Below, piece by piece: positions 4,313 to 32,100 of a stretch of DNA of 64,000 nt. Below the pieces are notes generated by a model, which worked only from the letters and a program-made list of their open reading frames with translations, made no database searches and was not told the origin of the DNA. Made by a program: the position numbers and the translations under genes. Origin of the DNA: an uncultured Fodinibius sp. (lineage in GTDB: Bacteria > Bacteroidota > Rhodothermia > Balneolales > Balneolaceae); the NCBI GenBank assembly GCA_913056235.1, contig CAJXMW010000004.1, positions 334,364-398,363 on the forward strand. The letters run 5' to 3'. Position 1 is the first letter of the stretch. The number at the start of each line of letters is the position of its first letter.

Positions 4313-5371
4313 TTGACCAACATATTTATGGCACTCGATCTCGATAATCATCCACACCGTCGCTGGAATTCACTGACCGGAGAATGGGTGCAGGTTTCGC
4401 CCCACCGGGCCAAACGTCCCTGGCAGGGCAAGCAAGAGGAAACGCCCGGAGAAGAAAAGCCAAAATACGATCCGGAATGCTATTTGTGTCCCGGAAACAA
4501 TCGAGCCGGGGATGCAAAGAATCCGGAGTTTGAATCGACCTTCGTGTTTACCAACGATTTTAGTGCCTTAAAACCCGATACGCCTTCGGAGACGATCAAA
4601 GACGGCGACCTGTTGTATGCCAAGGGCGAAAAAGGTATCTGCCGGGTTATTTGCTTTTCACCGCGCCACGATTTGACGTTACCCGAGATGGAACTTTCCC
4701 AGATACGCGAAGTGGTAGATCTCTGGACAAAGGAGTATACTGAGCTGGGCGACCGTGACTACATCAACTATGTGCAGATATTTGAGAATAAAGGTGAGAT
4801 TATGGGATGCAGCAACCCGCATCCGCACGGACAAATATGGGCGCAGCAGACCATCCCAGACGAGCCATCGAAAGAGCTCAAGCGGCAGATCAATTATTAT
4901 GAGGAGCACGATAAAACTTTGCTAGGCGACTATTTGGATCTTGAGCTGGAACGCGATGAACGGGTGGTGGTAGAGAATGAGCACTTTGTGGTTGTCGTGC
5001 CGTATTGGGCCTTCTGGCCGTTTGAGACACTGCTTATCAGTCGTCGGCCGTTCAGTCGATTTACCGATATGAGTGATGCCGAAAAGGACGGATTGGCCGA
5101 TATTGTCAAACAGATTACCGTGAAGTACGACAATATCTTCGAGGTTTCATTTCCATATTCGGCCGGTTTTCATCCCGCCCCCACCGATGGCAAAGAGCAT
5201 CCTGAGTGGCACTTTCATATGCATTTTTATCCACCGTTGCTGCGATCGGCTACGGTCAAGAAGTTTCGGGTGGGATATGAGATGCTGGGTACGCCACAGC
5301 GTGATATTACTCCTGAGGCCAGCGCAGATTTAATTAAGTCGTTGTCAGATACGCATTACAAAAAACAATAG
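4313..5371 (+). CDS. galT: Galactose-1-phosphate uridylyltransferase (start may be ATG 4328)
   Basis: '[25 protein letters not shown]' and catalytic '[12 protein letters not shown]'. Confidence 0.97.
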
Positions 5372-5696
5372 CAGGGAGGTTTGCTAGGCGGATTTACCTG
5401 AAAGTTTCATCTCGACAAATATCATATTTCTATAGCTATCCTACAAAGAGGTTGAGAGTTCCTCGATGTAATACTAAACAGGATGGATATGAAGATATTA
5501 GAATGTGCTGAATTAGGGCAGAAATGAAACTATGTAATCAGGATTAACATCTAACATAACTGACGAAGCCATGTAGCTGGTCGCCGATCATGCAGAACGG
5601 TTCTTAAATTATAGTCAACTGATCAAGCCATGACAAAATAGGTCAAGTCGATTATGGGGAATAGGGATGGAAGTCATAGGAAGGAGGAGAGCTAAA

Positions 5697-5942
5697 TCAT
5701 CCTGTGACCAACGTTTCTTTTTCTTCTTTTGAGAATTGTTTGATCTCATGTTCACGCTTACACGCTTCGGAGCGGTCAGGGTGTTCTTCGATAAATACTA
5801 CTGACTGTGGTTCGTGGGCTTGTAAGTATCTAGCGCCATTACCTTGTTTATGTTGATGCCAACGGCGGATCAGATGATTTGTACTGCCTGTATAAAGACT
5901 TTGGTCCTTACAACGGATAATATATACAAACCATTGTTTCAT
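5697..5942 (-). CDS. Stand-alone GIY-YIG nuclease (UPF0213-like)
   Basis: 'WFVYIIRCKDQSLYTGSTNHLIRRWHQH' and 'RSEACKREHEIK'; start taken at ATG 5942. Confidence 0.85.
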   Translation of the reverse strand: MKQWFVYIIRCKDQSLYTGSTNHLIRRWHQHKQGNGARYLQAHEPQSVVFIEEHPDRSEACKREHEIKQFSKEEKETLVTG

Positions 5943-6009
5943 AAATGAGAGAGTGGCCGACGAATGATTAAATAAAGCTTGCAATTTACTTAATTACCAA
6001 TCAACACAA

Positions 6010-6040
6010 AAACCCTGCAAGTCAACGACTTACAGGGTTT
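6010..6040 (-). terminator. Inverted repeat, probable native tRNA-Val terminator displaced by the integrated element
   Basis: AAACCCTGCAAGTC-aac-GACTTACAGGGTTT (one mismatch) lies immediately beyond the duplicated tRNA 3' end. Confidence 0.65.
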
Positions 6041-6042
6041 TA

Positions 6043-6056
6043 AGTGGGTGCTACTG
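6043..6056. repeat. att core, left copy (AGTGGGTGCTACTG)
   Basis: Identical 14-mer at 14751-14764, which overlaps the 3' end of tRNA-Val. Confidence 0.85.
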
Positions 6057-6170
6057 AACTTAAATAGTACATCAGCATTCCCCACTATTCCTGTTAATAT
6101 CCCGTCTATTCTATTTAAACAAACTTTTTGAACTGAGCTTCACAAGACATAAGTAGCATAAAACAATAAA

Positions 6171-6212
6171 TGTTTGTACCTTTTAGGGTATTGGTACAAA
6201 CAAGTACAAACA
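6171..6212. promoter_or_regulatory. Putative integrase arm-type sites, left
   Basis: TGTTTGTACC (6171-6180), inverted GGTACAAACA (6193-6202) and AGTACAAACA (6203-6212); the same motif recurs near the right att. Confidence 0.55.
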
Positions 6213-6222
6213 ACATCTACTT

Positions 6223-7536
6223 ATGGGATTAACTATTGGACTTACTCAGTTGAAACGTAAAAAGCGTAAAGACGGTACAATTCCTGTTTACGTTCGATTC
6301 ACTGAAGATAGAAAATCACGTTACAAAAGTACAGGTATTGCGATAAAAAAGAAGTATTGGTTAGGCAAAAAAGATGCGTGGGTTTCATCTTCACATGATC
6401 GAAGTGAGCAATTGAATAGAAAGCTAAAAAATCAACTTACTGAAATATACAAAGTTGAGGAACAGCTTTATAAAAATGAACAGCTTAGCCTGGATCGTAT
6501 TATTAGTACCCTTTCAGATGATAAAGATCCGCGCTCCATTCTACACAAGGCTGAGGAGTATAAACAGCACCTGAAAGAAGATGATCGGTATTGGGAGCAG
6601 CGCCACTTTACAGTAGTGATTAACAACCTGGATTCATTCATTGATGATAGAGGGAAATCAGATCAGTTAGATCAACTTAATTCTGAATGGATTGAACATT
6701 GGCAGCAATGGTTACTTAAAGAAGTTGGTAACGGGAATAATACCGTTCGTAAAAAGCTGCAACGCTTAAAAGGAATGACTGACTGGCTATATGATAGTGG
6801 AGATATAAAAACCAATCCGTTCGAGCGCGTGGATCGTGTTGAATCAAAGAAAACTAATAATAAGGTCAAGCTATCCTTTGACCAGATAAAAGCTATTGAA
6901 AGTTTGAGTTTAGAACGTGGCTCGGATCTATGGCACACTCGGAATTATTTTATGTATTCATTTTATAATGCCGGTATCCGGTTTGGTGATCTTTGTTGCT
7001 TAAAATGGGAAAATCTCATTGATGGGCGGTTGGTTTATCAGATGAATAAGACTGAGCAACAAAAAAGCATCAACCAACTGCAACCGATGTACCGGCTATT
7101 AATTCACTATGTCAGCAACGTTGGTGAGTATGTATCCTTTTCTAAATGGCAGCCCAACCTACAGCGACCAGTTGACCCTGTAGATAGCTGTTTGAAATAT
7201 ATTGTTATTGCTTATTCAAAAGACCATAACAGTGATTACATCCTTCCCATATTGGAGCAGCATCATTCCGACCCCCAAGAGCTACGTAAGCGAATAAGTA
7301 GTAAAAATGTGATCGTAAACAGGCACTTAAAAACAATTGCCGGTAAGGCTTCGATTCAGGCTAATATCTCATTCCATGTTAGTAGACATTCCTTTGCACA
7401 CTATGCACTTAAAAAGGGAATGGATTTATATGCTATCAGTAAAGCATTAGGTCATTCAGATTTGAAGGTTACAGAGGAATATATAAAGACCTTTGATGAA
7501 GAGATGCTGGATCAATCAATGAATCAATTATTCTAA
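6223..7536 (+). CDS. int: Tyrosine recombinase/integrase (Arm-DNA-binding + SAM-like + catalytic domains)
   Basis: N-terminal 'RKDGTIPVYVRFTEDRKSRYKSTGI'. Catalytic R (GIRFGDL), HxxR (HVSRHSFA), LGHS and Y (TEEY) are all intact. Confidence 0.95.
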   Translation: MGLTIGLTQLKRKKRKDGTIPVYVRFTEDRKSRYKSTGIAIKKKYWLGKKDAWVSSSHDRSEQLNRKLKNQLTEIYKVEEQLYKNEQLSLDRIISTLSDDKDPRSILHKAEEYKQHLKEDDRYWEQRHFTVVINNLDSFIDDRGKSDQLDQLNSEWIEHWQQWLLKEVGNGNNTVRKKLQRLKGMTDWLYDSGDIKTNPFERVDRVESKKTNNKVKLSFDQIKAIESLSLERGSDLWHTRNYFMYSFYNAGIRFGDLCCLKWENLIDGRLVYQMNKTEQQKSINQLQPMYRLLIHYVSNVGEYVSFSKWQPNLQRPVDPVDSCLKYIVIAYSKDHNSDYILPILEQHHSDPQELRKRISSKNVIVNRHLKTIAGKASIQANISFHVSRHSFAHYALKKGMDLYAISKALGHSDLKVTEEYIKTFDEEMLDQSMNQLF

Positions 7537-7549
7537 AACAGATATAACA

Positions 7550-8065
7550 ATGAGTATTTTTTCAGATGCCTTAAAATCATATCAAGATAATCGGTTTCAA
7601 GCCAATCAGAAGAAAGCTGAACAGTTAGATAATCTTTTAGAACGAATTTTGTTTTGGAAGAAATGCCTGAAAGAGGCTAAGCAAAAACAAGGGTTTAATA
7701 AAAAGTATCGTAATCAAATTAAAGCAGAAATAGCGTATTTAGAAGAGAAGATGGAGCTATCGAAAAGAGAGACTCAGAAATCTAAAAATGATAGTGATAA
7801 TTCAACAAAAGAGAATGAATCAAAATCCTATCCTTTAATAGATGAGTTTGTTACTCTTTTTTGTGAAGATACTAAATATTCAAAAAATGCTGTTAGAACT
7901 TACTTGATTGAATGGCAGAAAAGAGAAAATATTTCAAGTCAAAGAGCAAAGAGCAAAAAAGCAGCTATAGAAAAGTGTCCGAAGTTAAAAAATCCAGCTG
8001 AAGGAACATTCATAAATTGGGAAGAAAAATGGACTGAATTTCGTAAGAGTCGCACAGGAAAATAA
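7550..8065 (+). CDS. Hypothetical protein of the element (possible regulator)
   Basis: 171-aa ORF directly after int; N-terminal coiled-coil character and a basic C-terminus. No family recognised. Confidence 0.6.
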   Translation: MSIFSDALKSYQDNRFQANQKKAEQLDNLLERILFWKKCLKEAKQKQGFNKKYRNQIKAEIAYLEEKMELSKRETQKSKNDSDNSTKENESKSYPLIDEFVTLFCEDTKYSKNAVRTYLIEWQKRENISSQRAKSKKAAIEKCPKLKNPAEGTFINWEEKWTEFRKSRTGK

Positions 8066-8069
8066 CTAA

Positions 8070-8167
8070 TCAACCTATTTTCAACGAATTTTCAACAAAC
8101 TTTCAACGCTCTTTTAATAGACCCTTGTAGCCTCCTACCTTAAACTGCTTACAGAGAAAATTTCAAC
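8070..8167 (+). promoter_or_regulatory. Phased (T)TTCAAC direct repeats upstream of the xis-like gene
   Basis: TCAAC at 8070, 8081, 8092 and 8103 (11-bp period), plus TTTCAAC at 8161. Confidence 0.55.
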
Positions 8168-8182
8168 TAAATCTGTAAGCAA

Positions 8183-8485
8183 ATGCCTACTACTTATTTC
8201 CCTTCAAAAACCGAGTTCGAAGAAACGATCGAGGAAAAATTTCAGCAAGTCGTTTCAGAAAAATTACCGTCCTTAGTACGCGCTGCAACGGAAAAAAAGT
8301 ACTTAACCATTTCCGAGGTTTGCGACCTTTTAGATTGTAGCCGGCGACATCTTCAATATCTTCGAGATTCAGGTCAAATTGGCTACGTTAAAAACGGCCG
8401 AAAAGTGTATTTCAGGCGTGAAGATCTGGAAGAGTTTTTCACCGAAAACTATGTACCGGCTAAAGATGAAGGGGTGAAAAAATGA
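8183..8485 (+). CDS. Excisionase-like helix-turn-helix protein (HTH_17 type)
   Basis: 'YLTISEVCDLLDCSRRHLQYLRDSGQIGYVKNGRKVYFRREDLEEF'. Confidence 0.85.
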   Translation: MPTTYFPSKTEFEETIEEKFQQVVSEKLPSLVRAATEKKYLTISEVCDLLDCSRRHLQYLRDSGQIGYVKNGRKVYFRREDLEEFFTENYVPAKDEGVKK

Positions 8486-8700
8486 AACAGCCCGATTTTA
8501 CCCGGGCTGCTGAATCTCTGTATTCGTTTGACAAGAACGACTGTATAGAGAATGTAAGCAAGCCCACCGACTTTAGCAATTTATCCGGCCGCCCGTCGCT
8601 TATTCCGGGAGTGGAATATCCACTTTCAGAAAAGGAAGAGCAGCTTTTAGATAAAGCATGGCAACATTTCTGCAATATGAAATTACGGGGGGTATTATGA
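8482..8700 (+). CDS. Small hypothetical protein
   Basis: 72-aa ORF with ATGA overlaps to both neighbours (8482-8485 and 8697-8700), consistent with translational coupling. Confidence 0.6.
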   Translation: MKQPDFTRAAESLYSFDKNDCIENVSKPTDFSNLSGRPSLIPGVEYPLSEKEEQLLDKAWQHFCNMKLRGVL

Positions 8701-9902
8701 AGCATCACATTCCAGAAGAAGAAGATTTTAGCAATATACCGTTAATTGGTGAAGAGCACCACCAAACAAATGGTACGGCCTCAAAGTCAAATAAAACTAA
8801 AAAGGATGATAGCAGCGATTCTGAGGCGTTCCAACCGGTTGAACCGTACCAACACCCCGTTGATGGATCAGAGGTTGCTCAGGATATCAAAGACACCCTA
8901 ACTAAGTACTTGGTATTGCCTGAAGATGCCGACACTGCAATCACATTGTGGGTATTGTTTTCATATACCTTTGATGACTTCGATGTTTGCCCTATTCTGG
9001 CTATCACTTCACCTGAAAAACGATGTGGAAAAACGTCGCTGCTGGCCTTGCTCACAGCACTATGTCAAAAGGTGCTGGCAGGTTCCAATATTACACCGGC
9101 CGCAACCTTTCGAGCGATTGAGAAGTGGCAACCGACATTATTAGTTGATGAAGCCGATACCTTTCTGAATCAAAAAGAGGAACTGCGAGGGATTCTAAAT
9201 TCAGGCCATACCCGGCCAACGGCTTTTGTAACCAGAGCTGTTTCACAAGGTAAAAAGTTTGATGTAAAAAGATTCAGTACATGGACACCAAAGGCCATTG
9301 CTCTTATTGGTAAACTTACCGATACCCTGGAGGATAGATCAATCCGGGTAAAGATGCGTCGCAAAAAGAAAAATGAGTTCCGGGAACGGATACGATATTC
9401 ACAATTGAATAGTGAGTTGGAAGAACTCAGAAAAAAGATTGCAAAATGGGCAACGGAATTTGAACCAACATATCAATTTGAAGTTCCTGAGAAGTTGGAT
9501 GATAGAGCTGCTGACAATTGGTTACCGTTGCTATCCATTGCCGATGATGTAGGATGGACTGAGCAAGCCATAGAAGCCGCTGAGAATCTATCCGGAACGC
9601 CTGACACTCAGACATATCAAACGATGCTTTTAGAGGATATTCAGAAAATATTTTCAGGTGAGTGGAGGCAAAAAGATCATCCAACGGATAAAGTATTTAC
9701 TACTGATTTACTTGAAAAACTAAATGGGAAACCAGACAAACCGTGGTGCGAATTTAGTAATGGGCAAAACATGACAGCACGGAAATTGAGTGTCATGTTG
9801 AAGCCATTTGAGATTAGCTCAGACAATGTATCAATCAACGGTACGAGATTAAAAGGATTCACAAAAAATGACTTTGAAGATGCTTTCGACCGCTATTTAT
9901 AG
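8697..9902 (+). CDS. DUF3631-domain replication protein (P-loop, helicase-like)
   Basis: 'AITLWVLFSY', 'ILAITSPEKRCGKTSLL', 'PTLLVDEAD', 'LRGILNSGH' and 'LDDRAADNWLPLLSIAD'; start at coupled ATG 8697. Confidence 0.8.
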   Translation: MKHHIPEEEDFSNIPLIGEEHHQTNGTASKSNKTKKDDSSDSEAFQPVEPYQHPVDGSEVAQDIKDTLTKYLVLPEDADTAITLWVLFSYTFDDFDVCPILAITSPEKRCGKTSLLALLTALCQKVLAGSNITPAATFRAIEKWQPTLLVDEADTFLNQKEELRGILNSGHTRPTAFVTRAVSQGKKFDVKRFSTWTPKAIALIGKLTDTLEDRSIRVKMRRKKKNEFRERIRYSQLNSELEELRKKIAKWATEFEPTYQFEVPEKLDDRAADNWLPLLSIADDVGWTEQAIEAAENLSGTPDTQTYQTMLLEDIQKIFSGEWRQKDHPTDKVFTTDLLEKLNGKPDKPWCEFSNGQNMTARKLSVMLKPFEISSDNVSINGTRLKGFTKNDFEDAFDRYL

Positions 9903-10090
9903 CACACCCCCTATGTTAAAGCGTACACCCGTACGAATCGACGCTTACAGGCTACAGATGCCGTTTTTAGGGCTTTTAACCCGTACGGTTATTCACTCAG
10001 GGTGTACGGATGAGAACGACCAAAAATGCCGTTTACAGGCTATAAAGCCTGAAATGTACGGGTGTACGGATCAGTTTAGGGGGGTAGGGA
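9903..10090. other. Putative replication origin of the element
   Basis: Inverted 12-mers GTACACCCGTAC (9923-9934) / GTACGGGTGTAC (10056-10067), direct GGGTGTACGGAT (10000-10011, 10060-10071) and ACCCGTACGG (9979-9988), located between the two replication genes. Confidence 0.55.
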
Positions 10091-10099
10091 GGTTTTGCC

Positions 10100-11293
10100 A
10101 TGTTTGATGATAATATTTCCATATTCCGAACCTTCGATTCAGACCCTAAGGCTATCACTTTGGGACGTTGGATTCGTTCTACATTGAACGGGAATAATAC
10201 GTTCGCTAAGCAGGTGCTGAAATATCGAAACACCGGAGACGATAGTCTTAAAAAATCCCTTCCATTAGCGACCGTTGGTGCGTTATGTGAGGATGGCCGA
10301 AAGTTGGAAAATGTGAAAGAGCGCACGGGATGGATAGCCCTTGATATTGATGCCAAAGACAATCCCGAGGTTGAAGATTCAGCAGAGTTGCGGGACAATA
10401 TATCAAAGATTGTTTACGTGGCTTTTGCGGGATTATCAGTTTCAGGCAACGGCGTTTGGGCTTTGGTGAAGGTTGAAGATCCACAGAAGCAAGAGCAATA
10501 TTTCAAACAACTGCAACATGACTTTAAGCACTTTGGTATTGTCCTGGATTCTACAAAAGGTAAAAATCCCAATGATGCACGGTTCTACTCTTATGATCCG
10601 GACGCTGTTATCAGTGAAGATTTTAAGATATATGATCGGTTGCCTAAGAATAAGACTAAGCGCACCGGGAAACCTACCAGGCGAATCAATGCTAACTACT
10701 CATTAAATGATACCCGTGATAAAGTTGAGACTCTTATATCCAAAATTCAGGATCAACGGATAGATATAACTGAAGGTTATGAAAATTGGCGGGATTTGGG
10801 ATTTGCTTTTGAGGATGAATTTGGAGAGCAAGGCCGCGACTATTTTCATGCGATAAGTGAAATGTATCCAGGCTATGATCCCAAAGAATGTGATAGACAG
10901 TTCATAAAATGCGTACGACACCGAGGGAGTGGAATCAGTATAGGCACGTTCTTTTATGAATGTAGAAAGCATGGCATAACACTTGGAAATGATTTGAACG
11001 GCTCTAATGGCGAATATGAAGCCGATAAAAATACCGATTCTGAAAATTCTGCTACTTATGGGATAAATCCCTATACAGGCGAAGTTTTTGACGAACGCGG
11101 TTATCCGGTTGCATGGGATGACATTACACTGGATGAAGATTCACAGGAATATCACGAAGCGACTAAACAAGCTATTAACGATGCTGCACCTGATGAATTA
11201 GAGCAGCTATGCAGACGAGATCCCACAGTTAAGAAATTGATTAATCTTTTTGATGGAGAAGTGAAAACAGCAAGCGATATAATCTTAAACTAA
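10100..11293 (+). CDS. Primase-like protein: BT4734/VirE N-terminal domain + PriCT-2 domain
   Basis: 'LKKSLPLATVG', 'WIALDID', 'SVSGNGVWALV', 'RFYSYDPDA' (BT4734-type); 'YENWRDLGFA...GRDYFHAISEMYPGYDPKECD' (PriCT-2). Confidence 0.85.
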   Translation: MFDDNISIFRTFDSDPKAITLGRWIRSTLNGNNTFAKQVLKYRNTGDDSLKKSLPLATVGALCEDGRKLENVKERTGWIALDIDAKDNPEVEDSAELRDNISKIVYVAFAGLSVSGNGVWALVKVEDPQKQEQYFKQLQHDFKHFGIVLDSTKGKNPNDARFYSYDPDAVISEDFKIYDRLPKNKTKRTGKPTRRINANYSLNDTRDKVETLISKIQDQRIDITEGYENWRDLGFAFEDEFGEQGRDYFHAISEMYPGYDPKECDRQFIKCVRHRGSGISIGTFFYECRKHGITLGNDLNGSNGEYEADKNTDSENSATYGINPYTGEVFDERGYPVAWDDITLDEDSQEYHEATKQAINDAAPDELEQLCRRDPTVKKLINLFDGEVKTASDIILN

Positions 11294-11304
11294 CTACCAA
11301 CACT

Positions 11305-11532
11305 ATGAGTAAACAAAACTATAAAGAAATTGCCCGGGAGATCCTGGACAACAGAGACTTTGAACCGATCCACATAAATATTGCTCCTAAGCACCGCGAA
11401 CGACTCGAAGCAGTAGCCAACGCAATGGACTTGACCGTTCCCGAATGCTGCACATTCATGCTTTATTCCTTCATTAATGATATGGAATTGGCTGCTAAAC
11501 AAGCTGAAATGCAAAATCTTAATCCGAATTAA
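11305..11532 (+). CDS. Small hypothetical protein (possible ribbon-helix-helix DNA binder)
   Basis: 75 aa; 'PIHINIAPKHRERLEAVANAMDLTVPE' has a beta-helix-helix pattern. Confidence 0.5.
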   Translation: MSKQNYKEIAREILDNRDFEPIHINIAPKHRERLEAVANAMDLTVPECCTFMLYSFINDMELAAKQAEMQNLNPN

Positions 11533-11550
11533 TGGCGGGTATCCCTACAT

Positions 11551-11650
11551 ACTACGGGGGTATGGGCGGCATAGCAAATCACCTCCTCGACCCTATAATG
11601 ATAATCGTCCATCCCCGTATTATTCTTTCTTTAAGAAAACCCGAAACAAA
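11551..11650 (+). other. cos-like packaging site
   Basis: GGGGGTATGGGCGGCATAGCAAATC...CCCC...TTTCTTT..AAAACCCGAAA immediately upstream of TerS resembles the cos region layout of HK97-like cos phages. This is pattern recall, not a verified site. Confidence 0.45.
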
Positions 11651-11661
11651 AAAAATAGCTT

Positions 11662-11943
11662 ATGGATCTTTCAGATGAAGCCCAGAAATGGCACGATAAA
11701 ATAAAAAAAGAATACGGCATTCGAGATGAACCTGGATTGCTTTTGCTACAAACGGCGTTTGAAGCGTTCGACGAAATGAGAAAGGCGCAAAAAGAGATGA
11801 ACGGAACCCCTGTTTATACCGACCGTTTCGACCAGCCGAAGCCGCACCCGGCCGCAAAAGAGGCAAGGGCAGCACGTTCCCAGATGTTGAAAGCCTTGAA
11901 AGCTCTTAATTTAGAAATTGATCCTCCTAAAATTGAAAACTGA
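11662..11943 (+). CDS. terS: Phage terminase small subunit, P27 family
   Basis: 'LLLLQTAFEAFDEMRKAQKE...VYTDRFDQPKPHPAAKEARAARSQMLKALKALNL' is the characteristic P27/Terminase_4 pattern. Confidence 0.8.
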   Translation: MDLSDEAQKWHDKIKKEYGIRDEPGLLLLQTAFEAFDEMRKAQKEMNGTPVYTDRFDQPKPHPAAKEARAARSQMLKALKALNLEIDPPKIEN

Positions 11944-11951
11944 TACTGATT

Positions 11952-12254
11952 ATGCGTAAACGAAAACGAAGATCAACCGACCCGAAGGATGAACTTATTG
12001 AGTATGGTAAAAAATGGTTCAATGCTGCATGGGATGGCAATATTGATAAAGCTCTGAAAGCCCGGAAAGATGCTGAAGATGTTTTCAGTGAGCACCCGGA
12101 GTACCTGGAAGAGCCGCCCTACTGCAAAAAGATGTTATACATACATTGGCAGTGGTTTGTCAACTATTTGAAACCAGCAGTAAGAAACCGACTCAATGAA
12201 TTACTACACGAGGGCAAAATGCCGAATGCGTTTGCAGATCCTGATGACTTTTAA
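11952..12254 (+). CDS. Hypothetical protein
   Basis: 100-aa ORF between TerS and the capsid gene with a basic N-terminus (MRKRKRR); no family recognised. Confidence 0.6.
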   Translation: MRKRKRRSTDPKDELIEYGKKWFNAAWDGNIDKALKARKDAEDVFSEHPEYLEEPPYCKKMLYIHWQWFVNYLKPAVRNRLNELLHEGKMPNAFADPDDF

Positions 12255-12277
12255 CGATAACCAACGGGGGAAATATT

Positions 12278-12502
12278 ATGCCGGAAGTAACGAAATTACA
12301 ACTAAGATTAGTAGATCCTGAAACCTTTTTAGATGAATTTTATAAAGCAAAACACGAAACCGGCCTATCGGATAGAAAGGTTTTCGATGTGCTTAATAAA
12401 ATATTCCGAAAGACGTACGGAATCGACAGGTATTCGAGTTATGACTCTTTCCGAGTGGCACGAAATAGACGTATAAATAAAAAATGTAACAATGTTTCAT
12501 AA
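12278..12502 (+). CDS. Hypothetical protein (possible late-gene regulator)
   Basis: 74 aa with RBS-like GGGGA upstream; C-terminal 'RYSSYDSFRVARNR'. Confidence 0.55.
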   Translation: MPEVTKLQLRLVDPETFLDEFYKAKHETGLSDRKVFDVLNKIFRKTYGIDRYSSYDSFRVARNRRINKKCNNVS

Positions 12503-12579
12503 ATGGCCTATGCGCTTCATAAAGGGCATTTTATGGGGTATCTTTAAGTAGTACAAATTTAAACGAAACGCCCGTTATT

Positions 12580-13833
12580 ATGGACAAAGAAAACATAAAC
12601 AGACTATTAAATATCGACCCCAGCAACTTCGATTTTTCGAATATGAAGCTGGCCATTGAAACCCGAGATGAGTTTTTGCAAGCCATTGATAAACTTTCGA
12701 ATAATGGAGGCAATCCGGATCAAATAAATTCATTAGTTGCGAAAGCTAACCTTTTCGATTCAAAGATTGAAGCCCGTAAGCAAGAGGAGCGAAACGGGAT
12801 GCGTGCTGCGGATAACGGTTCGAGCAAATCGTATAGTTTGAAAGGTGGCAAACCGCTGAATGAAGCGGGAAGTATCCGGCTTTACCAGCCTAACCAACGT
12901 ATTGCAAACGATTTTAACAAGCCGCAAGGAACTGGCCGGGACGTGGATTTAGGTTCTTATTTAAGAGCCGTTGTTGACAAGCCCCGCAATGCAGCCGAAC
13001 GGGAGGTAGTTCAAAATTCAGTAACTTCAGGAGATTATGAATTGCCGACTCACATTGCTGCAGAACTCGTGGACAAATTGAGAGCACAGAATCCATTACT
13101 AATGAATAATGGCGCTGGCTCTCGTGTTGTAACCTTAGAAGGCGGAGATACGAAGTTTATAACTATTGACTCGGATATGTCGGCCACCTTCCATGCTGAA
13201 ATGGTAGAAGAGACCCCAGATGACCCTGCATTCGGCTCTAAAACGTTGGCGCCCAGTACATTACTGGCTATGACGGAAATCTCAAACGAGACCCTCCAGG
13301 ATTCTGCAAACATTGAAGAAGCGTTGACAACTTCGTTTGTCGGTGCGATTAATGATGCCATGTTGGATGCAACATTTGCAGCCACAACATCAAATGGACC
13401 GGACGGATTGGGAACTTATGTTACGCAAACGGAAGAGTATTCCAACGGTGGCAACCCAGATTGGAGCCATTTTGTAAACGCAAATAAGACCCTTTTTGAC
13501 AACAATCTTTCAGAGGACGGACGTTCTCATATTTTAGCCCCGGATGTATGGTCAGATTTAACCCTTGCCAAGGACTCGAATGGTAGATACCAGGATGCAC
13601 CCAGTGGAATACGAGATATTCCCAATTTTACAACATCTGGCGTTCCTACCGGTGAAGCGTATGCCGGGGATTTTGAAAACGTAATTTATGGGATGCGTCT
13701 TGAAATTAACATTCGACGGTATCCTTCAGCAGCGGCAAAGAGTTACGGGACGTTATTCGTTGCAGCAATGAGATACGATTTAGCCGTATTCCGACCGAAC
13801 GCACTTGTTCGAATTGAAGAAGCTACGGCTTAA
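12580..13833 (+). CDS. Major capsid protein, HK97 fold, with N-terminal delta/scaffold-like segment
   Basis: 'GDYELPTHIAAELVDKLRAQNPLL', 'AMTEISNETLQDS', 'LAKDSNGRY', 'AYAGDFENV' and 'MRYDLAVFRPNALVRI' follow the HK97-family MCP pattern; the first ~100 aa are helical. Confidence 0.9.
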   Translation: MDKENINRLLNIDPSNFDFSNMKLAIETRDEFLQAIDKLSNNGGNPDQINSLVAKANLFDSKIEARKQEERNGMRAADNGSSKSYSLKGGKPLNEAGSIRLYQPNQRIANDFNKPQGTGRDVDLGSYLRAVVDKPRNAAEREVVQNSVTSGDYELPTHIAAELVDKLRAQNPLLMNNGAGSRVVTLEGGDTKFITIDSDMSATFHAEMVEETPDDPAFGSKTLAPSTLLAMTEISNETLQDSANIEEALTTSFVGAINDAMLDATFAATTSNGPDGLGTYVTQTEEYSNGGNPDWSHFVNANKTLFDNNLSEDGRSHILAPDVWSDLTLAKDSNGRYQDAPSGIRDIPNFTTSGVPTGEAYAGDFENVIYGMRLEINIRRYPSAAAKSYGTLFVAAMRYDLAVFRPNALVRIEEATA

Positions 13834-13910
13834 TAATTCCCCCGTGCGCACCTTTGACGTGGCGTTTGCGCTTGATTCATCATCTGCGTGTTTATCCATG
13901 GTGCGCTTGC

Positions 13911-13958
13911 ATGCCCCACCGGTTTACTTTCAAGTTTACGGTGGGGCATTTTATTTTT
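13911..13958 (+). terminator. Rho-independent terminator after the capsid gene
   Basis: Perfect 11-bp stem ATGCCCCACCG / CGGTGGGGCAT followed by TTTATTTTT. Confidence 0.75.
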
Positions 13959-13975
13959 AGCCTTGACTAACAATT

Positions 13976-14116
13976 ATGAAAACGCAAAGAGTAGAACGCA
14001 GGATCTTATTTCTGGAAGAGCGTATCCAACGAGCACGGAAAGCCGGGAAAGATACCAGCGAACTAAGGAAACAGCGGAAACAGGCTATTCAGTATTTGAA
14101 CCGCCTGAACGAGTAA
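13976..14116 (+). CDS. Small basic coiled-coil protein, 46 aa (not in ORF track)
   Basis: MKTQRVERRILFLEERIQRARKAGKDTSELRKQRKQAIQYLNRLNE, translated by hand; A/T-rich leader like the other element genes. Confidence 0.5.
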   Translation: MKTQRVERRILFLEERIQRARKAGKDTSELRKQRKQAIQYLNRLNE

Positions 14117-14240
14117 TAGTAAACCCCTTTAATTTTTTTTTAGGCTCTTAGAATCCAATTATGAAAGCCGTTTAAAGCTAACTGATAGGGATTTTTAGAA
14201 ATAGCCTTCACAGTAATATGTGAGGGTTTTATGATGCCAA

Positions 14241-14510
14241 TTACAGAAAAAATTGCAGATAAACTGATATTGCAACTAATATTACATTTAATAAAGTCAT
14301 GACCGCTATACACCAAGTCATAATTTTAATATTCTTGCTGACTTGATAACTTTTGGCTAAAATTTTCAAATTAATTGCCCGTTGTGGATCTTTTTCAGTG
14401 TTAACCGGAAATTTTCTCAATTCTTTAGATAAGGTCGGTAATGAAATTTTGTCTTGAAGAACTTTCTTAAACAGCTCCTTGAGTTTCTTATCATATCTGT
14501 CGTATGACAT
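14241..14510 (-). CDS. Small protein with C-terminal transmembrane helix (accessory cargo)
   Basis: 89 aa with hydrophobic tail 'IMTWCIAVMTLLNVILVAISVYLQFFL'; the only antisense gene in the element; AT-rich. Confidence 0.65.
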   Translation of the reverse strand: MSYDRYDKKLKELFKKVLQDKISLPTLSKELRKFPVNTEKDPQRAINLKILAKSYQVSKNIKIMTWCIAVMTLLNVILVAISVYLQFFL

Positions 14511-14685
14511 AACAATAGATTTTATTTAAAATAGAAACCTAATATTAGTAAGACTGACAAGAGAGACAATCCTTACAATTTGTTAGCACAATGTTAAAAG
14601 ACTCTTGTCTTAATTGGCAGGGGCTTTTTTATGGAATAGCACTTCTTTTCTAAATTAATATAAAAAAGGCAGTTATAACCTTATA

Positions 14686-14707
14686 TGTTTGTACCCTTAT
14701 TTGTACC
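14686..14707. promoter_or_regulatory. Putative integrase arm-type sites, right
   Basis: TGTTTGTACC (14686-14695) and TTTGTACC (14700-14707), matching the left-end motif. Confidence 0.55.
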
Positions 14708-14750
14708 ATAAAAGATAAGTGTATGGCACACAAGGATTTACAGTAATGAG

Positions 14751-14764
14751 AGTGGGTGCTACTG
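14751..14764. repeat. att core, right copy (AGTGGGTGCTACTG)
   Basis: Identical to 6043-6056; overlaps the tRNA acceptor and T stems. Confidence 0.85.
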
Positions 14765-14827
14765 GATTCGAACCAGTGACCTCTACCGTGTCGGGGTAGC
14801 GCTCTAAACCAACTGAGCTAAGCACCC
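14753..14827 (-). tRNA. tRNA-Val(GAC); CCA not encoded
   Basis: Minus-strand sequence GGGTGCT TA GCTC AGTTGGTTTA GAGC G CTACC CCGACAC GGTAG AGGTC ACTGG TTCGAAT CCAGT AGCACCC A folds as a full cloverleaf with anticodon GAC. Confidence 0.95.
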
Positions 14828-15023
14828 AAAAAGTCAATATGTGAACTTGGTCTATTGTCTTTCCCAAGAGCGCCTAATATACAGATATTTCACTCAGGAT
14901 AGCAAGGAATGATTCGTCCTGCGGATTATCATTTTTTCTTAAAAACTGAGTGCCTTTTTTCTTTCAGCTGTAAGGCAGGTTTTGTATTTTGAGGATTCTC
15001 AAAAACGGCAAGAAATTTCAACA

Positions 15024-15488
15024 ATGGCTCAACGCAGAGAAGCACGGGAAGCGGTCTTACAGGCACTGTATGCCAATGAGATTGGTGAAGGTAAATGGAC
15101 CAATATCGTTAAAGCAGTTATCAAGCCACGTCTGGCTGATGATAAGAATACGTTTAAATTCGCAGAACGACTGTTCCTTAAAGTAGTCAATAATCAGGAA
15201 ACAGTAGATGAGGTTATGCAGGCTCATCTCAATAATTGGCGCGTAGATCGGTTAATGACCATCGACCGGCAGTTGCTGCGGATGGCGATCACTGAGTTTC
15301 TGTTTTTTGATCAGATCCCTACCAAGGTTACCATTAACGAGGCCATTGAAATTTCCAAGAAATTTTCTACCAAAAAATCTGGTAACTTCATCAACGGAAT
15401 ACTTGATTCGGCACTGGAACAGCTCCAGAAAGATGGCCGAATTGAAAAGAAGGGGCGGGGACGCATTGAAACCTCTCTTAATTCATAG
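15024..15488 (+). CDS. nusB: Transcription antitermination factor NusB
   Basis: 'RREAREAVLQALY', 'NWRVDRLMTIDRQLLRMAITE', 'PTKVTINEAIEISKKF' and 'FINGILD'. Confidence 0.95.
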   Translation: MAQRREAREAVLQALYANEIGEGKWTNIVKAVIKPRLADDKNTFKFAERLFLKVVNNQETVDEVMQAHLNNWRVDRLMTIDRQLLRMAITEFLFFDQIPTKVTINEAIEISKKFSTKKSGNFINGILDSALEQLQKDGRIEKKGRGRIETSLNS

Positions 15489-15500
15489 GCTATTTCAGCA

Positions 15501-16169
15501 GTGAGTGAACAAAAATTTATAGCCATTGGCGACATTCACGGATGTCTGGAGTCGATGGAGGCGATACTTGAAAAGCTAAAGCCCTATTACGACCGCCAGT
15601 TTGTATTTGTAGGCGATTACATCGATCGAGGTCCCAGCTCTAAGCAAGTGGTCGACTATCTGCTTGATTTCCAAAAAAAGGTAGACTGCGTGTTTTTACG
15701 CGGCAACCACGAGCAGATGCTTTTGGATGCCTTTAATCGCAATAAGGTGAACCTTTGGATGATGAATGGCGGCCGTGAGACTTTAGAGTCATATGGTCTC
15801 TCGAAGGATGATCAAAGCTTGCCAAAAGAGCATGAAGAATTTTACAATAATACCCGGTTTTATTACAACACTGATGACTACTTCTTTGTGCATGCCGGTA
15901 TATCGCCAGGTAAAACCATCGCCCAAAGTCTTGACGATGAGGATGAAGTACATGAATTTTTGTGGGAGCGTTCTCATTTAAATGCTTTTGAGACCCCTTG
16001 GGAAAAGACGGTGGTCTTTGGTCATACGCCCCGCCCAAAACCTTTAAAACGTAATAAGATGCTTGGTATTGATACCGGCTGCGTTTATGACCGTATAGGA
16101 TATGGTAAGTTGACGGCTGTGAAGCTTCCTGAAGAGGAGTTTATTCAGCAACCTTGTCTCGATATGTGA
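15501..16169 (+). CDS. Metallophosphoesterase (Ser/Thr protein phosphatase family)
   Basis: Motifs 'GDIHG', 'GDYIDRG', 'RGNHE', 'VHAG', 'FGHTP' and 'IDTGC'. Confidence 0.9.
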   Translation: MSEQKFIAIGDIHGCLESMEAILEKLKPYYDRQFVFVGDYIDRGPSSKQVVDYLLDFQKKVDCVFLRGNHEQMLLDAFNRNKVNLWMMNGGRETLESYGLSKDDQSLPKEHEEFYNNTRFYYNTDDYFFVHAGISPGKTIAQSLDDEDEVHEFLWERSHLNAFETPWEKTVVFGHTPRPKPLKRNKMLGIDTGCVYDRIGYGKLTAVKLPEEEFIQQPCLDM

Positions 16170-29118: not shown

Positions 29119-32100
29119 ATGCCCACAGACACACAAGTTCACTACAATAAACAATACCTGGAAGAGGAGATACGCCAGCTTGCCACCATCCAACAGGCTA
29201 CGCTTGATAGTAAGCCTTTACAGCCTATCAGTCCTATTATTGCGGATGCCAAAGATACATTAGTTGAAGCCTATCGTGTGTTGGCCCGTGCGGCCAAACA
29301 AAACAGAGAGCTGAGTTCGGCCGGGGAATGGTTGATTGACAACTTTTACATCATCCAGGAGCAGATGGTACAGCTTAACGCGGACCTGCCCGAATCGTAC
29401 TATCGAAAGCTTCCGCGGCTGGTTCAGGGAGAGTATCGTGGATATCCCCGTACCTTTGAGATTGTTCAGATGCTGGCGACAATCAGCGACAATACGATCG
29501 ACCAGGATAATACGACTATAGCTGTCCGGGCTTACCAAGAGATTGACACGCTTAGTTTAGCTGAGATGTGGTCAGTGCCACTAATGAATCGTCTGGCTCT
29601 GATTGTGAGGCTGGCAGAACGAGCCAAAAAGCTGCTCAGAGACCGCCGAATGCAAGATGAAATTGAAAAGATCTTACACGAAAAGATTGACGAAGAGGCA
29701 GATGAACCCGGTTATTTGCTGCGTAAGCTTTCTGAAATTGTTGGCCAACAAAACGATACTCAACGGTTTCTGGTGATATTAGCCCAACAGCTTCAAAAAA
29801 GGGGGATGCTCACTGAAAACGAGCGCCGCTGGTTCGATTATAAGTTCTCTCGTTGGGAGACAAACCTTGAAGAACAGCTTCGAGGCCGTACGCAACAAAC
29901 TTCTCGGCTCCACCTCAGCATTCAGAATGCGATCTCATCGCTGCGCGTGGTTTCAGAGACCGACTGGGCTGATTTTGTAGAAAGTTGTTCGGTGGTAGAA
30001 CGTATCCTGCGCCTGGACCCGGCGGACATGTATCACCAGATGGATTTTAGCACGCGCGACACTTATCGCAAAAAGGTTGAGAAGCTAAGTGCACATTCGA
30101 ATTTTAGCGAGCAGAAAGTAGCCGAGCAGGCGCTGCTTATGGCCGAAAGTGCTGCTCAGAATGGTGCCACCAGTAAAGGCAAAAAAGTGCATATTGGGTA
30201 CTATCTGGTCGGGGATGGATATGAAGGGCTTATCGACAAACTTAAATATAACAGGCCGTTCGACGAGTGGGTGCTGAAGAAAGGCGAAGAACAGCCAGCT
30301 ATCTACTTTTCCATTATCGGATTGCACCTGGTGATATTACTCGGAATTGTGGGACTCTTCACCAATTTTTTAATGCAAGAATGGTGGATGATTACACTGA
30401 CCCTGCTGATTACAGTTCTTCCGGCGCTTGATTTATCGATCGTGTCAACCAATCGGCTACTCTCCTTTTTTGTGTCGCCCCGGATACTACCTAAACTCGA
30501 ATTTAAGGACGAAATTCCGCATAAATATCGAACTGTAGTGATTGTTCCGACGATGCTTTCTTCCCCCCGTGATGTTGCTGATCAGTTCGAGGCACTTGAA
30601 ATCAGGGCCCTGGCCAATACGAACCCGTCGCTGCAGTTCGCTTTGTTGGCAGACTTCCATGATGCCCCGCATGAAAGTATGCAAGACGACAGCGCTATCC
30701 TGGAAGAAGCCCAACAGCAAGTTAACCGATTAAACTTGCAGTACAAGAGTAAGTATGGAGATAAATTCCTGTTCTTCCATCGAAAACGTCGCTGGAACGA
30801 AGAGGAAGACACGTGGATGGGGTGGGAGCGCAAACGGGGTAAGTTGGAAGAGTTTAATCACCTGCTAAAAAATCCCGATGCCGATACCACATATAGCATC
30901 GTAAATGATAATTTCTTGCAGACGCTTACGAAGTTTCCCCTGCAGTTTGTAATTACTCTTGATGCAGACACCAAACTGCCGCCGGGTAGTGCCCGCATGC
31001 TGATAGGTACGGCCGCCCATCCGTTAAACAGGGCAGAGGTCGATAAGGAGGGTAATATTGTTGAAAGAGGTTACGGTATTTTTCAACCCCGTATTTCTAT
31101 AGCACCGAAATCGGCGAATCGGACGTGGTTTGCGCGCATTTTTTCGGGTAATGTGGGGTTGGATCCCTATACCACGGCCGTTTCCGATATTTATCAGGAT
31201 TTGTTTGGAGAGGGCATTTTTACAGGCAAGGGATTGTATGACCTTGCTGTTTTTGAACAGGTTCTGGGTGATAAGTTTCCCGAAAATGCTATTCTCTCAC
31301 ACGATTTGCTCGAAAGTACCTATCTACGGGCGGCCTTGGTCACTGATATTGAGCTCTTTGATGCCTATCCCCGCAATTACCTGAGCTTTGCCAAACGCAA
31401 TCACCGTTGGATACGTGGGGATTGGCAAATTTTGTACTGGCTGTTTACGAAAGTACCTGCAAGAGGCCAAAGTAGTGAGTCAAATCCCATCAGTGGTATT
31501 TCAAAGTGGAAAATATTTGACAATATGCGTCGCTCGCTCAACCCGGTAGCGCTGATTATATTCTTGCTTGCCGGCTGGGTACTGCTTCCGGGATCAGCAT
31601 TCGTATGGACGGCAGCAGTATTCGGGATTCTGGCCTTTCCCATTTATTCAAGTTTTTCAACTGATATTTTTAGGCGTCCCGAACGCGTTAATTGGAAACT
31701 GTATATCGAGAAAATAAGGGCTGATCTGAAGACCAATACACTGCAGGCCGTAACAAGTTTCTTGTTTTTGCCTCACCAGGCTGCAATTTCGCTTGATGCA
31801 ATAATTCGGACATTGTATCGGATGTTTATATCGCAAAAAAAAATGTTGGAGTGGACCACGGCGAACCAAGCTGAACGCCTGCATTCAAACGGCACATTTC
31901 TGAGCTATTGGCTTAACATGTGGTTTAATATCTTTTGGGGTATTGTAAGCCTTATATTGGTCAGTATTTATCATTCAACAATATTGATCATTGCGATCCC
32001 GGTTTGCTTGGGTTGGATATTAGCTCCCGGAATAGCCTTTTATCTGACCCGTACGCCGGAGGTATTTGAGCATCGGGAGTTGCCAGAAGGGGATGTCAGG

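Follow-up and report, generated by a model that had tools for sequence, protein, structure and literature searches.

The 64,000-nt window analysed here, a stretch of contig CAJXMW010000004.1 from an uncultured Fodinibius sp., holds an 8,708-bp element (window 6057-14764) between two 14-nt direct repeats. Its gene order is integrase, HTH_17/AlpA-like DNA-binding protein, DUF3631 protein, primase, P27-family small terminase subunit (TerS), the small proteins u100 and u74, and an HK97-fold major capsid protein (MCP) (Table 1). The plus strand holds nearly all of the genes, and G+C content is lower toward the integrase end. The tRNA-Val(GAC) gene at the right end is the sole tRNA of the window.

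Contigs from public marine metagenomes were aligned to window 5000-16000, and those of runs X2 and X3 join position 6056 straight to the bases that follow 14764. In these two other marine metagenomes the chromosome carrying the empty site reaches depths of 89x and 253x. The empty sites and the exact repeats together indicate a discrete insertion with exact ends that is polymorphic in the population, and window 6057-14764 is almost certainly an active integrative element. A first-pass annotation of this DNA had sized the element at 8.7 kb, which agrees with both the distance between the attachment (att) repeats and the empty site seen in other samples.

Table 1. Features of the integrated element in window coordinates
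Feature	Position	Strand	Basis or remark
attL core, 14-nt direct repeat AGTGGGTGCTACTG	6043..6056	.	repeat match; empty-site junction in metagenome runs X2 and X3
TGTTTGTACC-containing repeat, partner at 14674-14698	6159..6183	+	two copies 80% identical
Tyrosine integrase (Arm-DNA-bind_5, SAM_5 and catalytic domains)	6223..7536	+	PF00589 E 1.6e-15, PF17293 E 1.4e-11, PF13102 E 7e-9
171-aa protein after integrase	7550..8065	+	no family match (Pfam, PHROG, NCBIfam)
HTH_17 (AlpA/excisionase/MerR-like) DNA-binding protein	8183..8485	+	PF12728 E 1e-15, MerR_1 E 6e-5
Small conserved open reading frame (ORF), 72 aa	8482..8700	+	homologs in L003 and L013; no family match
DUF3631 protein, replication module	8658..9902	+	PF12307 E 1.6e-38
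Primase, BT4734-like N-terminal domain and PriCT_2	10100..11293	+	PF08707 E 4e-13, PF08800 E 8e-11, PHROG 15962 DNA primase E 1e-19
u75, small ORF (75 aa), first gene of exchanged packaging block	11305..11532	+	85% identical in L012; dN/dS 0.07
Non-coding TerS leader, with claimed cos-like G-runs (~11553-11571)	11533..11661	+	conserved CCGAAACAAAAAAAA just before start codon
TerS, P27 family, 93 aa	11662..11943	+	weak matches in Pfam, PHROG and NCBIfam; homologs match PF05119
u100, 100-aa helical protein, conserved basic N-terminus	11952..12254	+	homologs in satellite loci only
u74, 74-aa three-helix protein	12278..12502	+	AlphaFold2 (AF2) model, BFVD matches, phage homologs
HK97-fold MCP, 417 aa, N-terminal delta-like domain (~residues 1-90)	12580..13833	+	PF05065, TIGR01554
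Hairpin resembling a terminator, stem of 11 perfectly paired bp (13911-13921 and 13939-13949), then TTTATTTTT T-run	13911..13958	+	read from sequence
u46, small conserved ORF, last gene of exchanged block	13976..14116	+	L001: 91% identical by tblastn, 89% in pairwise alignment
89-aa ORF, accessory gene	14241..14510	-	no significant family match
attR core	14751..14764	.	overlaps tRNA-Val 3' end; same AGTGGGTGCTACTG as attL
tRNA-Val(GAC), integration target	14752..14827	-	same arrangement in relative L013

The late block and its small proteins

The late block comprises u75, TerS, u100, u74, MCP and u46. A separate 8,959-nt contig from run X2 shares the stretch 11111-14106 at 96.6% identity and is different in the rest, which indicates that the genes u75 through u46 are exchanged together from one element backbone to another. 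Profile library scans of u75 gave no family match; it has the look of a ribbon-helix-helix protein, judged by eye only.

The MCP matches PF05065 over residues 151-412 (E 5e-24) and TIGR01554 over residues 53-412, on model positions 38-383 (E 3e-24). Across 23 relatives the MCP is conserved from G90 onward, alignments to more distant ones start only at residue ~93, and the profile consensus of the N-terminal region is a charged, scaffold-like stretch. This late onset of conservation suggests that the first ~90 residues behave like a fast-evolving delta (scaffold) domain. Judged by these profile matches the protein is an HK97-family MCP with a delta-like N-terminus, as the first-pass annotation had called it. 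The ratio of nonsynonymous to synonymous substitution rates (dN/dS) is 0.11 against the related locus L013 and 0.21 against L003, the remaining MCP pairs being saturated at synonymous sites. Only 34 MCP relatives were found in 5.8 billion clusters, and few close ones in GTDB representative genomes, IMG/VR and JGI metagenomes.

Taken alone, the window TerS scores below threshold (Pfam Terminase_4, E 9e-4, 20.1 bits against a cut-off of 24.7; PHROG 83, E 3e-3; TIGR01558, E 1e-3), and the three libraries name the same family, P27 or Terminase_4. All six of the aligned TerS homologs match PF05119 (best E 5.8e-22), and the earlier assignment of this gene to TerS is probably correct. Its dN/dS of 0.017-0.022 is the strongest constraint we measured. 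Profile searches of the PDB with TerS, u74 and MCP returned nothing useful. In the TerS slot, two related loci encode a mutually similar protein of 78-80 aa (L001 9133-9369 and L003 5056-5298), which may be an alternative DNA-recognition subunit; no family was found for the alternative small proteins in this slot of L001, L003, L015 and L105.

The large terminase subunit (TerL), the portal and the protease do not accompany these genes. tblastn with 217 such proteins, taken from related phage contigs, found none of them in the element or the whole window, not even as remnants, and no element protein had a Pfam or PHROG match to these functions. The absence of portal, TerL, protease and tail reported in the first-pass annotation is upheld, and neither of the small ORFs between TerS and MCP was found to be what is left of a protease or portal. 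Its proposal that the protease is borrowed is overstated in so far as some relatives carry one of their own.

The first-pass annotation had also placed a cos-like site (~11551-11580), with G-runs and an AAATC, immediately before TerS. The bases are present, but nothing marks them as a cos site. The G-run part of the leader is 63% identical to that of L012, the level of the adjacent TerS synonymous sites (proportion of synonymous differences, pS, 0.39), in a pair whose TerS genes are 98% identical in protein and 91% in DNA. Indels relative to the 96.6% identical X2 element cluster at 11547-11553 and 11590-11602, within the leader. Across five TerS-bearing elements the AAATC shows no conservation, and only a GGG-rich island (~11561-11571), AAyCGT and a start-adjacent CCGAAAyAAAAAAA are semi-conserved. 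The A-rich 3' part of the leader, its final 36 nt, is 91% identical to L012 and 75% to L013. Conservation in four to five elements and the indel pattern give no support for a cos site at 11551-11580. A promoter, operator or packaging signal may lie in this leader.

The two small ORFs reported between TerS and MCP are real by the measure of purifying selection, with dN/dS of 0.07-0.11 for u74 and ~0.09 for u100, and individually neither matches Pfam, PHROG or NCBIfam. Both had been put forward as prime candidates for new interference factors. That idea is not supported for u74, which is a phage head-cluster gene; of the two, only u100 is satellite-specific.

The AF2 model of u74 (pLDDT 80) has three helices and a basic tail. 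Its BFVD matches are small uncharacterised phage proteins (TM 0.59-0.71, 25-30% identity), and the fold gave only weak homeodomain-like matches in the PDB, with E above 2. Family scans with 11 members against Pfam and 32 members against PHROG gave no match, and an exhaustive profile search recovered 38 cluster representatives among 1.84e9 proteins. The profile matches gp08 of Cellulophaga phage phi39:1 with 47 bits (L016 3916-4146), where the gene order is TerS(P27)-TerL-gp06-gp07-gp08-gp09-portal-S78 protease-MCP. The family motif also led to 80 IMG/VR contigs (L017-L096), and wherever TerL or portal is present on them the u74 homolog follows TerL, usually abutting it, and precedes the portal, most often in the order TerL-u74-portal-protease-MCP. 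The family consists of three-helix proteins of 64-95 aa with the motif GF..F...LN..Y...FG..RYSSYDSFR..R.RR, and it is absent from Pfam and PHROGs.

By homology and gene position, u74 is of phage origin and represents a head-cluster gene that is conserved, though unannotated, in a large group of HK97-like phages. Since its homologs lie between TerL and portal in phages, the late block of the element reads as the head cluster of a phage without TerL, portal and protease. The retention of u74 together with TerS and MCP, where TerL, portal and protease are dropped, suggests that u74 serves a step requiring a match to the DNA or proteins of the satellite itself. A plausible guess from the modelled helix bundle and basic tail is that u74 binds nucleic acid, or terminase or portal.

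Several u74-bearing loci depart from the usual arrangement. In the first ~5 kb of L087, L089, L090 and L095, the genes for u74, portal, protease and MCP come directly after an integrase-like ORF, and that stretch shows no TerL upstream of them; these could be satellites resembling phage-inducible chromosomal islands of the capsid-forming kind (cf-PICIs), or phages with another gene order. L015 has three u74 paralogs, two in tandem upstream of MCP (8268-8555 and 8558-8845) and one downstream (11454-11693), and no recognisable TerS or u100. A TerS-like N-terminal extension, seen by eye in the u74 fusion proteins of L002 and L014, was unsupported (E 0.4).

The position of u100 is where TerL sits in phages, and the 80 phage contigs contain no homolog of it. 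We rejected u100 as a TerL remnant (best 6 bits against 71 TerLs) and as a homolog of phi39:1 gp06 (1.8 bits). Its AF2 model is all-helical and of low confidence (pLDDT 64), and the fold search gave no match.

Related elements and their unit length

At least nine related elements, from Balneolaceae and metagenomes, share u74 and MCP, and mostly TerS and u100; none has TerL or portal. Every MCP relative with readable surroundings lies in the same kind of element. The shared layout is integrase (Bacteroidota type or P4 type), unknown ORF, HTH_17/AlpA, replication module, small ORFs, (TerS)-(u100)-u74-MCP and tRNA. Three integrase or replication types occur among the elements, the replication module being DUF3631 with primase, DUF3987, DUF3987 with DUF6371, or others, and the neighbouring tRNA is Val, Leu-CAG or Leu-TAA. 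Where a source has a name, it is Fodinibius roseus or a Balneolaceae metagenome-assembled genome, of the phylum Balneolota. The MCPs of these putative satellites form a clade of their own.

Selection across the family is purifying, with dN/dS of 0.02-0.2 wherever synonymous sites are unsaturated, several pairs being saturated. The recurrence of the reduced gene set in at least nine elements, the low dN/dS and the lack of remnants support the view that it is a conserved and selected design and not a product of decay.

The unit lengths are 8,708, 8,561, 8,899, 9,195, 8,283 and 8,775 bp, to which two circular contigs of 8,714 and 9,188 bp can be added. The range across these eight elements is 8,283-9,195 bp despite their differing content, and elements with the protease and the kinase do not exceed the others in length. 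Such uniformity points to a size ceiling, as packaging into a fixed small head predicts.

The additional genes of some relatives deserve mention. A ClpP-type protease and a Ser/Thr kinase follow MCP in two of them (L002/L006 and L014). The Pkinase genes lie at L002 12403-13083 and L014 12334-13032, and L001 11629-11904 is a truncated kinase N-lobe only; these kinase genes are possibly defence or accessory cargo. The more distant L007 has the order MCP-TerS-unknown-S78 protease. The 9,188-bp circle L105 encodes a clade MCP (381 aa) with ribbon-helix-helix and HTH_3 genes and has no integrase, u74 or TerS match; it may be a plasmid-like or non-integrating variant.

A probable helper-dependent satellite and its alternatives

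We interpret window 6057-14764 as probably a helper-dependent phage satellite that resembles the chromosomal islands inducible by phage (PICIs) and works in the manner proposed below. The PICI core comprises int, alpA, pri-rep, capsid morphogenesis genes and terS (PMC10085698), with no other structural genes (PMC6092414). The element has an integrase with an att site, a putative AlpA/MerR-type regulator, a primase module, TerS with MCP, and a small size. Its closest counterparts are PmCI172 of Pasteurella multocida, in which terS is accompanied by an MCP homolog and which makes heads of 37-39 nm, and EcCICFT073 of E. coli, which has capsid and decoration homologs (PMC6092414). All of them combine an integrase, an AlpA/HTH regulator, a primase-replicase and a late block that includes terS, an MCP homolog or both, have no portal, TerL or tail, and are about one third or less of the helper's size. 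The element differs in its Balneolota host, its smaller size (8.7 kb) and the presence of u74 and u100. At the sequence level this likeness was compared through shared Pfam families.

The best-studied mechanistic model for a possible role of the MCP is Ccm of SaPIbov5, a cos-type Staphylococcus aureus pathogenicity island (SaPI) that likewise encodes an HK97-fold MCP homolog with a delta domain. Ccm occupies pentameric capsomers and forces small T=4 heads, and its delta domain was found cleaved with no protease identified in SaPIbov5 (PMC8569155). Unlike the element, SaPIbov5 has no TerS and relies on the helper cos site, and Ccm is homologous to the capsid protein of a known helper, whereas the nearest phage MCPs here are 24-27% identical.

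Other satellites are further removed. The cf-PICIs additionally carry genes for TerL, portal, protease, head-tail adaptors and HNH and take nothing but tails from the helper (PMC10690885; PMC10085698); the element shares with them an HK97-type MCP and TerS of its own but has none of these further genes. The P4-like genes Sid, Psu, Delta, Ash and alpha primase-helicase had no Pfam, PHROG or NCBIfam match among the element ORFs, a scan that a remote homolog could escape. Marine virion-encapsidated integrative mobile elements (VEIMEs) are small and carry integrase, AlpA, primase and sometimes TerS, with no major capsid gene (PMC9618062), unlike the element. It is neither a cf-PICI nor P4-like nor a VEIME. 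PICI-like tycheposons of Prochlorococcus are marine and tRNA-integrating, carry integrase, primase/helicase and a viral packaging gene, and occur in viral fractions (bioRxiv 10.1101/2020.12.28.424599). The likeness is a general one of tRNA site and packaging gene, and tycheposons were described with either terS or MCP, whereas the element has both, and u74. The head module of phi39:1 and the ~80 IMG/VR contigs is of the type from which the satellite genes would derive, with P27 TerS, PF05065 MCP and the u74 member gp08; unlike the element, they belong to complete phages, equipped with TerL, portal, S78 protease and tails, whose MCP is ~24% identical and which have no u100.

By analogy with these systems, we infer helper dependence, packaging, capsid remodelling and roles for u74 and u100 in the following scheme. 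The helper would be an HK97-like phage of the P27-TerS type, of which phi39:1 is the only cultured example we found. After induction, the integrase and the HTH_17 protein would excise the element as a circle, and the circle would replicate through its own primase and DUF3631 module. The presence/absence polymorphism and the circular contigs of relatives are indirect evidence on excision, replication and packaging. The satellite TerS, possibly with u74, would mark satellite DNA for the helper TerL, and the satellite MCP would co-assemble on the helper portal, either as the whole shell or in particular capsomers as Ccm does. The resulting head would be sized for one genome of 8.3-9.2 kb, and the delta domain would be removed by a helper or host protease, with some relatives bringing their own. 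Because it lies in the TerL position and is satellite-specific, u100 would be the leading candidate for a protein that adapts to the helper terminase or inhibits it. Helper-type genomes are ~28-38 kb (phi39:1 28.76 kb, IMG/VR contigs up to 38 kb), so that 8.7 kb is ~0.23-0.31 of such a genome; by our own estimate, this is close to the T=3:T=7 volume ratio, (3/7)^1.5 = 0.28.

It is tempting to speculate further that the satellite's own MCP builds an entire small shell, T=3- or T=4-sized, on a stolen portal, which would place the element midway between PICIs and cf-PICIs. We consider this fuller exchange of capsids rather unlikely. If it occurs, the u74 family would be an unrecognised essential packaging or portal-associated factor of many HK97-like phages, kept by satellites because it must match TerS or MCP, and u100, in the place of TerL, would represent a terminase hijacker of a new type.

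Several observations weigh against a satellite working as proposed. No helper phage was identified, and the 64-kb window contains no prophage. In run X1 the depth of the element equals that of the chromosome, which gives no sign of induction. The nearest phage MCPs found are only 24-27% identical, and co-assembly with a helper MCP is accordingly uncertain. The packaging site of the element was not located, and L001, L003, L014 and L015 have no recognisable P27 TerS. Elements of the clade were not found among IMG/VR viral contigs, except for the distant L007, and so give no direct sign of encapsidation.

The lack of virome evidence for packaging would suit an element that is primarily an anti-phage defence island, in which MCP, TerS and u74 are dominant-negative decoys against phi39:1-type phages and transfer of its own is rare or absent. 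MCP, TerS and u74 are homologous to exactly those phage parts that must fit together, PICIs are known to interfere with phage (PMC6092414, PMC8569155), and relatives carry likely defence cargo in the form of a Ser/Thr kinase. We nevertheless think this improbable: the 8.3-9.2 kb range and the circular forms are predicted by a packaging limit and not needed by a defence island, the dN/dS of 0.02 at TerS, the strongest constraint, fits packaging of the element's own DNA, and transfer and interference can coexist. We assign a similarly low likelihood to packaging as concatemers in full-size helper heads, in the manner of VEIMEs and EcCICFT073, with the MCP serving interference or stabilisation and not size. 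Three to four concatenated copies of 8.7 kb would fit a normal head of a 28-38 kb helper-type genome equally well, marine VEIMEs are multi-copy concatemers in normal heads (PMC9618062), and EcCICFT073 has a capsid homolog and yet phage-sized heads (PMC6092414). However, VEIMEs encode no MCP (PMC9618062), PmCI172 with its MCP homolog gives small heads (PMC6092414), and every member keeps its MCP at full length, delta domain included and purifying selection acting on it, which suggests a building role.

The partial head module might alternatively mark a decaying prophage that retained TerS and MCP by chance, and the protease of some relatives is readable as a stage of loss. This is strongly disfavoured and very improbable in our view. 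The same reduced set recurs in at least nine elements with unrelated integrases and replication modules, its genes are intact with dN/dS of 0.02-0.2 where measurable, TerL, portal and protease have left no pseudogene traces, and the presence/absence polymorphism, circular forms and block exchange indicate an active element. HK97-fold proteins can also form closed shells without a portal, encapsulins being an example, and the MCP might accordingly build a helper-independent shell, encapsulin- or gene transfer agent-like, that serves something other than transfer by phage. In SaPIbov5, isometric procapsids can assemble in the absence of portal (PMC8569155). We give this reading very little credence, as the MCP matches the phage capsid families PF05065 and TIGR01554 and has a delta domain, is encoded together with TerS and the phage head-cluster gene u74, and belongs to an integrase-primase element in which no cargo or targeting genes were recognised.

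The first-pass annotation had presented the combination of own capsid and TerS with borrowed remaining parts as an intermediate hijacking strategy. As a novelty this does not survive comparison with PmCI172 and EcCICFT073 (PMC6092414), Ccm of SaPIbov5 (PMC8569155) and the PICI core (PMC10085698). The strategy of satellites with MCP homologs is already known, from tycheposons as well, and nothing is overturned. We found no described satellites for Balneolota or Bacteroidota in the literature searched. What is new is the host lineage, the compact family, the recognition that u74 is a gene of phage head clusters which satellites retain, and the satellite-specific u100. The satellite interpretation would extend PICI-type satellites to Balneolota, of the FCB group. 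The compact family (at least nine elements, 8.3-9.2 kb) shows which genes such satellites bring (TerS, u74, MCP) and which can be borrowed (TerL, portal, protease, tail), and it flags u74 and u100 as two testable small proteins.

Further features of the element and the window

Outside the late block, the slot after the integrase differs in content between elements, and the 171-aa protein it holds here has no homolog among the related loci. HTH_17 or Phage_AlpA occupies the regulator slot in relatives. Additional GTACAAAC copies lie at 6192-6210, and the TGTTTGTACC repeats are candidate arm-type integrase binding sites. A promoter and terminator scan gave counts at chance level, and it missed the hairpin after MCP owing to the 17-nt loop. 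The 89-aa accessory ORF has a hydrophobic C-terminus, judged by eye.

The genes flanking the element (galT, a GIY-YIG protein and nusB) are ordinary. The GIY-YIG nuclease-domain ORF (95 aa, window 5697-5984, minus strand) lies just beyond attL and is chromosomal, because the empty-site contigs also contain it. In run X1 the assembly is fragmented over window 12340-14908, with a depth of 29-50x against 23x for parts of the stretch from MCP to the tRNA, which hints at a second related sequence in the same sample. A 2,140-nt contig of run X2 (depth ~7) joins a different sequence to the tRNA-Val 3' end at 14752 in a minor population; this is possibly the junction of the related 8,959-nt element (depth ~10) in the same att site. 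Farther along the window, an ordinary chromosomal gene at 29119-37752 encodes a 2,877-aa protein with GH94 supersandwich, GH94 catalytic and glucoamylase domains, a domain set that looks like the cyclic beta-1,2-glucan synthase type.

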